From a virus (lineage: Duplodnaviria > Heunggongvirae > Uroviricota > Caudoviricetes), in IMG/VR virus record IMGVR_UViG_2778261543_000009, positions 1 through 31,069 of that record: 31,069 bases of DNA, one strand, 5' to 3'. The first letter of the stretch is position 1; the number at the start of each line of letters is the position of its first letter. Below are positions 7,191 through 7,995 of this stretch, in pieces. The notes below the pieces were generated by a model. The model saw nothing but the letters and a program-made list of their open reading frames with translations, ran no database searches and had not been told where the DNA came from. The position numbers and the translations under genes are program-made.

Positions 7191-7216
7191 AAAAAAACCG
7201 CCGAAGCGGTTTTAAG
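7191..7216 (-). terminator. Intrinsic terminator (bidirectional hairpin) after the moron gene, 12 nt upstream of the J-like gene start
   Basis: AAAACCGC-CGAA-GCGGTTTT perfect hairpin at 7194-7213; on the minus strand it is followed by a T7 run (7191-7197) and begins 9 nt after the 7222 stop codon. Confidence 0.7.
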
Positions 7217-7221
7217 TTAAC

Positions 7222-7968
7222 TTATTTTGCCTGTTTCATTTTTTCCACCCTCTCAAGCATTCTTTTTACATTTGATGGAGGATAGTTAAATTCATCGCCG
7301 TCTCCAAAAGAAATTTTTATAGGCTTCATTTTCATAACCAATTCTTTCAGAACCGCTTTACCAATTTCAGTTTTTGGTACTATAAAACCATTTCCATACA
7401 AGCATGATTTATAAGTTTTATAATATTCATCATTAATCAAAATTGGTGGGTACTCTAATGGCCCATCAATTTGCACTGAATTATCGCAAAATCCATTGCC
7501 TTTAGATTTTGAAGCAATAAAAATAGCTATTGTCCCATCATCGCCATACATCAGGAATCTATTTTTACTAACACCTTCCAGTGGAGGTAATATTATCAGT
7601 GCACCATCAATATACCATTCAGCGTAATTCTTTGATTCATTGATAATGTTCTCATTAATTTCATTTAAAGATGAATATTCCCTGAATGCATTAGAATACC
7701 ATTGTCGAACACATGATTCTGTTTTGCACTTCTCTCTTTCATTCCACAAGTCTGAAACAATTTTTCTAAAAGCTTTCTTATCAGCGCTCTCTAACTTTAC
7801 TTTTTGATATAAAGAATTTAATTTATCATCAAGTTCAGATAATTCACTGTTGCTGCAAATTAACTTTTCAGAATATGATTTAGCTTTCGAGCAATCAAAA
7901 GATACCGCATTCGCAGTTCCGATTTGTAATAAAAAAGCAAACACTACAAATAATTTAAACTTAATCAT
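7222..7968 (-). CDS. Secreted protein with N-terminal DUF1311 (LprI-like, lysozyme-inhibitor-like) domain; moron gene
   Basis: 248 aa; signal peptide MIKFKLFVVFAFLLQIGTANA; then FDCSKA...EKLIC...LDDKLN..Y...W...C..ESC, the Cys/Trp spacing of DUF1311; strongly AT-rich; own strong RBS (AAGGAG), upstream promoter-like hexamers and downstream terminator. Confidence 0.6.
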   Translation of the reverse strand: MIKFKLFVVFAFLLQIGTANAVSFDCSKAKSYSEKLICSNSELSELDDKLNSLYQKVKLESADKKAFRKIVSDLWNEREKCKTESCVRQWYSNAFREYSSLNEINENIINESKNYAEWYIDGALIILPPLEGVSKNRFLMYGDDGTIAIFIASKSKGNGFCDNSVQIDGPLEYPPILINDEYYKTYKSCLYGNGFIVPKTEIGKAVLKELVMKMKPIKISFGDGDEFNYPPSNVKRMLERVEKMKQAK

Positions 7969-7972
7969 CCGT

Positions 7973-7995
7973 AATCTCCTTAAAAACAGGAGATT
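7973..7995 (-). promoter_or_regulatory. Hairpin that pairs the Shine-Dalgarno sequence of the LprI-like gene with an anti-SD
   Basis: Inverted repeat AATCTCCT / AGGAGATT (8-bp arms, 7-nt loop). In the mRNA the 3' arm contains the SD AGGAG, 6 nt upstream of the ATG at 7968. Confidence 0.35.

Follow-up and report, generated by a model that had tools for sequence, protein, structure and literature searches.

The moron concept of Juhala, Hendrix and colleagues, with lambda bor, lambda lom and HK97 gp15 as examples, describes autonomous units of promoter, open reading frame (ORF) and terminator which are located between the late genes of lambdoid phages, have a lower content of guanine and cytosine (GC) and occur only in some relatives. 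These features, the promoter being a putative one, are shared by a gene in the 31,069 nucleotides of the IMG/VR virus record IMGVR_UViG_2778261543_000009 (in the following called the window), which encodes a protein of 248 amino acids with a predicted signal peptide, an N-terminal DUF1311 domain and a C-terminal part here termed domain X. The gene is located between a W-like and a J-like baseplate gene (the W-J slot) of a myovirus-tailed, lambdoid E. coli prophage of the Rac type and thereby, as other lambdoid morons, inside a presumably Q-antiterminated late operon, in which its terminator would thus be tolerated. Unlike for these morons, the slot is always occupied in the relatives sampled, as expected for a cargo hot spot. 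It resembles in this respect the accessory and defence hot spots of P2 and P4, reportedly described by Rousset et al. in 2022, where unrelated low-GC cargo including a nuclease is likewise exchanged among near-identical phages at a fixed position between structural genes; the cargo of the W-J slot differs, however, in consisting mostly of exported proteins of unassigned function and in matching no PADLOC model. Taken together, the gene appears to be a typical moron, i.e., a horizontally acquired low-GC cassette whose product is an exported periplasmic binder, and we assign a probability of roughly 50% to this reading as a whole. Its moron and hot-spot anatomy is very probably correct, whereas the binding or exclusion function is put forward tentatively. 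RefSeq already contains an annotation of the gene, and morons within late operons are textbook material; the correction of its functional label is new here, and the finding as such is a well-formed but typical moron.

The foreign origin of the gene is apparent from its base composition. The coding sequence (CDS) has a GC content of 31.2% and the segment 7191-7995 one of 31.7%, compared to 49.3% for the window, which agrees with the original prediction made from this DNA, where the gene was described as about 33% GC in a roughly 50% GC phage. GC at third codon positions is 0.25 (0.36-0.63 in 20 other structural ORFs), and the sliding-window GC drops sharply from about 0.50 to 0.30-0.32 across positions 7200-8000 (approximately) and then rises again. 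The base composition of the gene is, as is characteristic of morons, distinct from that of the surrounding phage genes. Purifying selection acts on the gene, as its dN/dS (ratio of nonsynonymous to synonymous substitution rates) against two alleles is 0.12-0.13.

The 5′ end of J was sought in 5,426 complete E. coli genomes and was found at 96 places in 89 of them (94.7-98% identity for full-length matches). Only 12 of these 96 places contain the 248-residue gene in full length (96.6-99.7% identity), and two further ones (ETEC4090 and ETEC1703) contain its 5′ half, resulting in a protein with the same N-terminus and another C-terminus. A conserved location in all related phages, together with a phage-like base composition, had been named at the outset as an outcome that would speak against a moron; 12 occurrences plus two variants among 96 places are not compatible with it. 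The comparison of related prophages, proposed at the same time as a check of the insertion, revealed that other cargo replaces the gene at exactly the same breakpoints. The left breakpoint of the variable segment coincides with the J start codon (7179/7180), and the right one is found at 7982, 8032, 8070 or 8378, varying by relative.

The cargo at these breakpoints is diverse. Rac-SA53 carries two plus-strand ORFs of 182 and 154 residues, and pPE4 a 182-residue ORF with the same position and size as in Rac-SA53, which is directly followed by a 162-residue ORF named 'anti-repressor'. STEC383 exhibits ORFs of 163 (plus strand) and 227 residues (minus strand), TUM9757, KY178 and E. coli W exhibit either ORFs of 103 and 74 residues or one of 179 residues, and RM13745, F9792 and NWU_3 contain a stand-alone HSDR_N/PDDEXK nuclease of 386 residues on the minus strand, without ant. 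In a more divergent relative (L026) the slot includes Bro-N, YafO and ORFs of 194 and 158 residues. The E. coli cargo has a GC content of 27-37%, and eight of 12 distinct cargo ORFs begin with a signal-peptide-like N-terminus; that the W-J slot is rich in AT-rich exported proteins is a new observation. No relationship of the DUF1311 or X profiles to other cargo (rac62, rac61 and the 163-residue protein of STEC383) was found with hhalign. An antirepressor gene of the ant/Bro type is present on the opposite strand in 11 of 15 prophage configurations sampled; the remaining four are the three with the nuclease and without ant, and pPE4, in which the ant-named ORF is co-oriented with the cargo. As the slot was never empty in the sampled relatives, with some cargo always being present, it behaves as a cargo hot spot rather than as the site of a single insertion.

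A structural or assembly role of the 248-residue gene was rejected, as the protein has a signal peptide and the gene is missing from most near-identical prophages, and a blocker matched to the phage receptor is disfavoured, as the same cargo is found beside two different tail-fibre types. As a separate observation, the nuclease of RM13745, F9792 and NWU_3 (positions 3821-4981 of the loci L016, L017 and L018) is named 'type I restriction endonuclease', belongs to phrog_4225 and comes with a promoter and a terminator of its own. This nuclease may represent a single-gene defence that is absent from PADLOC.

The hexamers TTGAAC and TAAAAT with a spacing of 16 nt, originally predicted as promoter-like, were found on the minus strand just outside the segment 7191-7995, 3-30 nt beyond its right edge (Table 1). 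Their putative assignment as a promoter rests on context, not on the hexamers. A 50-bp segment (7982-8031) comprising the -35 element, the -10 element and the leader is common to two relatives with different minus-strand cargo (L004 and L005) and is missing from relatives with plus-strand cargo, and this restriction to minus-strand cargo is the best available argument for this segment acting as the cargo promoter. The strong Shine-Dalgarno (SD) sequence that had been noted is present as well and is part of a leader hairpin, which is also kept in the 356-residue variant with one A-U pair changed to G-U. The 5′ arm of the hairpin begins 2 nt past the -10 hexamer, and therefore a transcript from the cassette's own promoter might miss part of this arm, as in the fold-back inhibition known from IS10. 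This idea, according to which the SD hairpin would be formed in readthrough transcripts and not in own-promoter ones, was modelled by partition-function folding; the probability of an unpaired SD was 0.17-0.40 for short and 0.38-0.70 for long transcripts, which does not give a clean separation.

At the other end of the cassette, the near-perfect terminator of the original prediction was recovered as a canonical hairpin, the 3′ arm of which (GCGGUUUU) is followed by UUU. A consensus terminator scan did not pick it up, because the scan extends the stem greedily into A/U tracts. Its position directly before J stands, whereas the distance between its U-run and the ATG of J (7179) is 11 nt and not, as first given, 12 nt. 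Each minus-strand cargo ends in its own strong hairpin with a U-tract directly before the ribosome-binding site of J, and the hairpin sequences differ among cargo types (equivalent but different hairpins are present in L016, L017 and L026). A terminator ahead of J is a property of the slot and is not peculiar to the 248-residue cargo. The concern that expression of the downstream baseplate genes requires readthrough or another promoter is real, but general to this phage group and not specific for the gene. In most relatives, the late operon must in addition traverse the opposite-strand ant gene, which overlaps the 3′ end of the W-like gene. Foreign composition, an own promoter-like site, SD and terminator, and patchy presence all back the self-contained AT-rich moron that had been proposed.

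Morons within late operons are classically accommodated by Q antitermination. As the phage type is lambdoid with Q, terminator-resistant late transcription is to be expected from lambda biology, and during lytic growth Q-modified transcription would read through the moron terminator into J. In the lysogen, the moron is probably transcribed from its own putative sigma70 promoter. A different possibility is that the protein is not a factor of lysogenic conversion, but a phage accessory protein expressed late from the Q-dependent transcript, for example for lysis tuning or the protection of progeny. The co-orientation of the gene with the late operon is in agreement with this idea, as is that of domain X genes with tail genes in a Rahnella prophage and in two viral contigs (L033 and L034), and the SD hairpin could make translation conditional. 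Yet, the gene is dispensable, being missing from 85% of near-identical prophages, it has a promoter-like site and a terminator of its own, and a Bordetella relative, described below, appears to be co-transcribed with CI. A late accessory function thus appears very unlikely.

With regard to the protein, known relatives of its N-terminal domain are LprI of M. tuberculosis, in which lysozyme is inhibited by the second domain, MliC (PF09864), and the DUF1311-only periplasmic protein ScwA of Salmonella, which has no role in lysozyme resistance and modulates MltD (PMC7933661). Moreover, DUF1311 proteins recur as predicted or demonstrated immunity proteins against periplasm-acting effectors of type VI secretion systems (T6SS) (PMC12135965, PMC9796082, PMC12981562). 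The window protein shares with LprI, ScwA and the E. coli immunity protein Etsi4 a signal peptide, the pattern FDCxKA...E..IC...L..D..L...Y ... W..R..C....C with four cysteines and a predicted three-helix domain, and a periplasmic location would be expected for it as for them. The signal peptide that had been predicted can be read from residues 1-21, with an AXA motif (ANA then VS) as cleavage site of the signal peptidase I type and, unlike in LprI, without a lipobox. Residues 22 to about 100 carry FDCSKA..SE.LIC...LS.LD..L..LY ... W.ER.KC....C. When DUF1311 relatives are aligned to this segment, C26, C38, W75, R78, C81 and C86 do not vary, so that the predicted Cys/Trp pattern is present. A four-cysteine criterion has been described for DUF1311 (PMC7933661).

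Judged by these residues and by profile searches, the N-terminal domain is a divergent member of the DUF1311/LprI family (PF07007). The window protein itself scores 18.2 bits against PF07007 (E 0.0033, profile positions 1-47 of 106), under the gathering score of 22, which is passed by its closest homologues P0002 (E 2e-9 to the query) and P0003 (E 2e-7) and by ORF260c of RB49, a protein flagged as DUF1311 already in 2006 (PMC1524935). Of the 469 proteins retrieved with a profile built from seven N-terminal sequences, the top 120 were pre-annotated as PF07007 in about half of the cases. A failure of DUF1311 in profile searches, the other outcome named initially as speaking against the proposal, was consequently not observed, as these searches confirm the domain. 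A sequence search of the PDB with the N-terminal domain gave no match. Two weak similarities, to the NCBIfam 'colistin resistance' family A1S_1983 (24.5 bits versus a cut-off of 150) and to Pfam GapR_DNA-bd (16.8 bits), were rejected as DUF1311-level similarity and as a helical or low-complexity artefact, respectively. The single-sequence AlphaFold model of the whole protein is poor, with a predicted local distance difference test (pLDDT) of 40 and three helices at residues 40-97, and was left out of the fold search.

Near-identical E. coli proteins (97-99% amino acid identity) are named 'lysozyme inhibitor LprI family protein' by the Prokaryotic Genome Annotation Pipeline, and this name is one argument for a genuine inhibitor, which would shield the peptidoglycan of the lysogen by occluding the active site of host c-type or g-type lysozymes or of phage or T6SS muramidases. 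DUF1311 proteins adjoining lysozyme-like T6SS effectors, of which they are the predicted or shown immunity proteins, also fit such a role, as do the GH108 muramidase that serves the phage itself as endolysin, and a stand-alone domain X gene directly after a holin and a PF00959 lysozyme gene in L024 and L025. However, the inhibiting part of LprI is MliC and the DUF1311-only ScwA gave no lysozyme protection (PMC7933661). The window protein lacks MliC, and its C-terminal half lacks any Pfam match. Searches of Pfam and NCBIfam gave no match of it to MliC/PliC (PF09864), Ivy, PliG or PliI, and the adjacency of X and lysozyme is seen in one of eight independent contexts. A lysozyme inhibitor is therefore an unlikely identity of this protein. 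Of the original description as DUF1311/LprI-like, the domain is borne out by the profile search and by homologues above threshold, whereas the function that it implied is not. Because the inhibiting module of LprI is MliC, which is absent from the window protein, the database name 'lysozyme inhibitor' is not supported, and the RefSeq name over-states the knowledge on this and similar proteins.

Orphan immunity genes are typically AT-rich and mobile, as is the gene studied here, and it could accordingly be an orphan T6SS immunity gene directed against a periplasm-acting effector of competing Enterobacteriaceae. Signal-peptide-bearing DUF1311 proteins flank WHIX and other T6SS effectors, orphan-immunity arrays exist in Pantoea, and Etsi4, a DUF1311 protein of E. 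coli, rescues the toxicity of Etse4. Unlike Etsi4, the window gene is not located beside an effector: no effector, Hcp, VgrG or PAAR gene is near, and the gene is always found in the prophage baseplate slot. Its DUF1311 domain exhibits no similarity detectable by hhalign to ECs_0213 of the strain Sakai, which is presumed to be Etsi4 from its position. Among the contexts examined, furthermore, domain X was found only in prophages, in viral contigs or beside phage lysis genes, and in none of them was a T6SS effector its neighbour. An immunity gene of this kind appears quite improbable.

Similarly, a factor of envelope homeostasis or niche fitness that modulates host peptidoglycan enzymes in their level or activity, instead of countering an invader, has a rather small chance of being correct. 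Its model would be ScwA, a soluble, periplasmic and DsbA-dependent protein with two disulfides, which has an effect on virulence and increases the amount of MltD. The same four-cysteine signature is found in the window protein, and the prophage family is common in livestock-associated enterotoxigenic (ETEC) and Shiga toxin-producing E. coli (STEC) and has toxin morons (LT-II and pertussis-like) elsewhere in the genome. ScwA, however, has a C-terminal DUF1311 in a different, all-helical architecture, whereas the DUF1311 of the window protein is N-terminal and fused to a predicted beta-sandwich, and the head swapping and tail-module linkage in several phage lineages (see below) fit better to a conflict system.

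The remaining C-terminal residues (about 135, originally counted as about 130 unassigned ones) have no match in Pfam or NCBIfam. Residues 100-248 were compared exhaustively with 1.84 billion representative proteins, which gave 15 matches, of which approximately ten are stand-alone proteins of 153-165 residues consisting of a signal peptide and domain X. The invariant residues of this domain include a Trp, two Cys and two of the three invariant Pro within a C-terminal 'YPxS' stretch, and none of the homologues contains a Pfam domain. Two homologues, P0013 and P0004, the latter encoded alone in the same slot of a relative, match phrog_22446 at about 2e-11 over the whole profile; the window C-terminus alone matches this profile weakly (E 0.11-0.19) and P0004 with an E-value of 3e-26. 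AlphaFold with a 12-sequence alignment predicts the fold of domain X with a pLDDT of 91.3 and a predicted template modelling (pTM) score of 0.85. Foldseek searches with this model gave nothing significant in the PDB; in BFVD they found four viral proteins without a name that are comparable in size (template modelling score 0.54-0.70), and no lysozyme inhibitor was found by description among the fold matches listed. The likeness to IalB (PDB 3DTD, PF06776) is weak, with 8% identity, a Foldseek E-value of 0.44 and no PF06776 match, and carries no mechanism, because the biochemical function of IalB itself is not known. A PDB sequence search with the X profile, a tblastn search of 50,697 phage records with the stand-alone X proteins and a scan of GTDB representatives for X-related loci yielded no relatives. 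Domain X is a rare and weakly IalB-like family, probably phrog_22446, restricted to prophages and viral contigs. Its definition as a rare, phage-restricted and putatively periplasmic fold, encoded in the same slot also as a moron on its own, is new here.

Eight independent contexts of domain X could be distinguished, of which six are clearly prophages or viral contigs and two are located beside phage lysis genes or in a prophage remnant. Five of the eight lie inside a tail or baseplate module. These are the W-J slot of the window, where X is fused to DUF1311; the same slot of a relative with 67-77% identity (L026/L027), where X stands alone at 37.5% GC, with an extended -10-like promoter of its own and a terminator located 11 nt ahead of J; a Rahnella prophage (L011), with X between the spike gene and the sheath-initiator and J genes; and two viral contigs (L033 and L034), in which X directly follows the tape-measure gene and precedes baseplate genes, with 35-36% GC in loci of 49-52% GC and a terminator. 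In the other contexts X is found between the lysis cassette and early genes (L012, L013 and L030), in a Pantoea prophage remnant (L008-L010) and directly after the pair of holin and PF00959 lysozyme genes (L024 1500-2597 and L025 1866-2909, one orthologous context). In each of the six contexts measured, X had a lower GC content than its locus, and in five of these six it is followed by a terminator-like hairpin. Domain X itself is hence a recurrent moron, which prefers tail-module gaps of myovirus-type prophages. In L024 and L025, the sole context tying X to a muramidase, X is located next to host genes, with yrbL-like, Na/H exchanger, ychF and pth genes as neighbours.

The N-terminal part of the protein recurs as well. 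In phages, a signal peptide with a DUF1311 'handle' (39-66% identity over approximately 100 residues) is combined with unrelated C-terminal 'heads', at least five of which could be distinguished. The 356-residue protein of the ETEC4090 prophage is encoded in the same slot, with a promoter and a terminator 87-97% identical to those of the window; in the Yersinia phage vB_YenM_21.09 and the Klebsiella phage Chronis the fusion gene is located between baseplate genes and the fibre gene, and in lytic Krischviruses such as RB49 in the early region. In the Bordetella phage vB_BaM-IFTN9 (L021 1743-3181) the gene follows 5 nt downstream of a gene for an S24-type CI repressor, and its product has a tRNA_anti-like OB (oligonucleotide/oligosaccharide-binding) fold as head. 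This fusion appears to be in an immunity operon and co-transcribed with CI, and its position next to CI, which is typical for genes expressed in lysogens, is independent circumstantial support for expression in the lysogen. The pattern of a constant handle with variable heads across phage lineages is new here.

According to the mechanism we prefer, i.e., that of an exported binder encoded by a low-GC promoter-ORF-terminator cassette in the recombination-prone slot between the W-like gene and J of a Rac-type, myovirus-tailed prophage, the protein would be exported by Sec, cleaved after ANA and folded into a soluble, disulfide-bonded two-domain periplasmic protein, consisting of the helical DUF1311 handle and the beta-sandwich head formed by domain X. 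It may act as a stoichiometric periplasmic binder which protects the lysogen, and would not be a classical inhibitor of the MliC/PliC/Ivy type. Candidate targets, which would be neutralised upon their arrival in the periplasm, are the tail tip or the ejection apparatus of a superinfecting phage, or else a toxin that degrades peptidoglycan; the DUF1311 immunity proteins of T6SS provide a precedent for DUF1311 proteins as periplasmic antagonists.

Exclusion at the level of the envelope is known from T4 Spackle (Sp), T4 Imm, T5 Llp, Cor of phi80 and N15, and Ltp of TP-J34, and Llp and Cor are, as the window gene, encoded in or beside tail or receptor-binding modules. The window protein resembles these proteins in being small, phage-encoded and exported, and it could counter an incoming phage in the periplasm. 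However, no similarity in sequence or fold to any of them was detected, and it is predicted to be soluble and not lipid-anchored.

Several results weigh against the binder reading or parts of it. The number of promoter-like sites (four in 2.2 kb) does not exceed the 5.1 expected from shuffled sequences, so that the hexamer match alone is not significant, and the SD is buried in the leader hairpin; translation may therefore be low or conditional. PADLOC gave no match for nine slot cargo proteins including the 248-residue protein. The cargo type does not co-vary with the tail fibre, as the gene occurs together with fibres of 461 and of 517 residues. For the more specific targets, the missing similarity to ECs_0213 and the fact that the lysozyme adjacency of X comes from one orthologous context point in the same direction.

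It appears conceivable, although rather doubtful, that such polymorphic exported phage proteins, with a DUF1311 handle and interchangeable heads, constitute together with the stand-alone X morons an unrecognised class of periplasmic superinfection-exclusion or immunity factors. Its members would come from Rac-type lambdoids, from Yersinia and Klebsiella myoviruses of about 45 kb, from a temperate phage of Bordetella and from lytic Krischviruses. Its heads would include domain X, the tRNA_anti-like OB fold and at least three others and would set the specificity, and the class would stay linked to tail genes because its targets in kin phages would be the parts responsible for penetration (tape measure, spike or hub). 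If the proposed protection of the envelope is correct, it would provide a function for phage DUF1311 domains and for phrog_22446, and the W-J gap of Rac-type prophages would be worth mining for exported factors that act in exclusion or immunity.

Table 1. Positions of the cassette, its signals and the surrounding genes in the window.
Feature	Position	Strand	Remarks
CDS of the predicted exported two-domain protein (248 residues)	7222..7968	-	ATG start; stop codon 7222-7224
Sec signal peptide, residues 1-21	7906..7968	-	MIKFKLFVVFAFLLQIGTANA then VS; read from the sequence
DUF1311/LprI-N (PF07007) helical domain, residues ~22-100	7669..7905	-	four conserved Cys (C26, C38, C81, C86)
Domain X, residues 114-248	7225..7629	-	predicted beta-sandwich plus two helices, two invariant Cys; AlphaFold and profile searches
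Putative sigma70-like promoter TTGAAC-16-TAAAAT	7998..8025	-	9/12 match; back-to-back with the ant promoter
Leader hairpin	7972..7996	-	perfect 9-bp inverted repeat, 7-nt loop; -11.1 kcal/mol, z -3.5
SD sequence AAGGAG	7976-7981	-	7 nt 5′ of the ATG; within the 3′ arm of the leader hairpin
Intrinsic terminator AAAACCGC-UUCG-GCGGUUUUUUU	7191..7213	-	8-bp stem, UUCG loop, U7; -10.3 kcal/mol
Variable cargo segment of the W-J slot	7180..8031		breakpoint mapping
Baseplate J/gp47-like gene, left flank of the slot	5953..7179	-	PF04865
W/gp25-like baseplate gene (sheath-initiator position), right flank of the slot	8847..9194	-	by position from L011
antA/antB antirepressor gene, resident of the same slot	8302..8871	+	PF08346, 1e-25; 3′ end overlaps the W-like gene
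Spike or 'baseplate protein' gene	9891-10604	-	
Hub gene	10604-11611	-	

The window represents the late/structural region of the prophage, with the tape measure at 12546-14624. Its closest deposited phage, Escherichia phage Rac-SA53, carries int, recET, kilR, immunity genes of the dicA/dicC type and a Q antiterminator as well as toxin morons (LT-IIa and pertussis-like). An E. coli prophage that is 98% identical over the slot (window 6500-9300) shares this regulatory layout, and its Q position is occupied by a DUF1133 protein. In the minus-strand direction, the hub and spike genes are followed by an AT-rich gap, the W-like gene, the slot with ant and then the 248-residue gene, and J, beyond which a wedge gene, the tail fibre gene and a fibre assembly gene are located. 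The assignment of the W-like gene is positional, as its counterpart in L011 belongs to PF10934, while the window ORF itself has no Pfam match.

The convergent ant and W-like genes overlap by approximately 25 nt (8847-8871), and therefore late transcription runs antisense through ant, and vice versa, an arrangement that could act as a built-in switch via transcriptional interference. Between a sigma70-like promoter site TTTACA-16-TATGAT (8034-8061) and the ant ORF lies a leader of about 240 nt, which includes a full-length match to the Rfam family RF02221, sRNA-Xcc1 (8181-8265, plus strand; 72.4 bits, gathering score 53). This element may be a cis- or trans-acting regulator of ant.

The gap between the spike and W-like genes (9195-9890, 37-43% GC) is a second variable AT-rich region. 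It holds two paralogous small ORFs on the minus strand (9202-9381 and 9468-9674), which both encode the motif GE(K/R)(F/L)PNWKFLLIW followed by a hydrophobic stretch, and the homology to the otherwise 98% identical prophage L001 stops at 9312. The endolysin gene (29862-30428, minus strand) encodes the GH108 muramidase, which also contains PG_binding_3 as a domain. In the closest whole-genome relative this position is taken by an M15 peptidase, and therefore the lysis cassette is mosaic as well. Finally, the record of pPE4 (L003; PP818812.1, 'Actinobacillus phage vB_Apl-pPE4'; Actinobacillus pleuropneumoniae) exhibits approximately 95% DNA identity to E. coli Rac-type prophages across the baseplate region, and its assignment to an Actinobacillus host looks doubtful.

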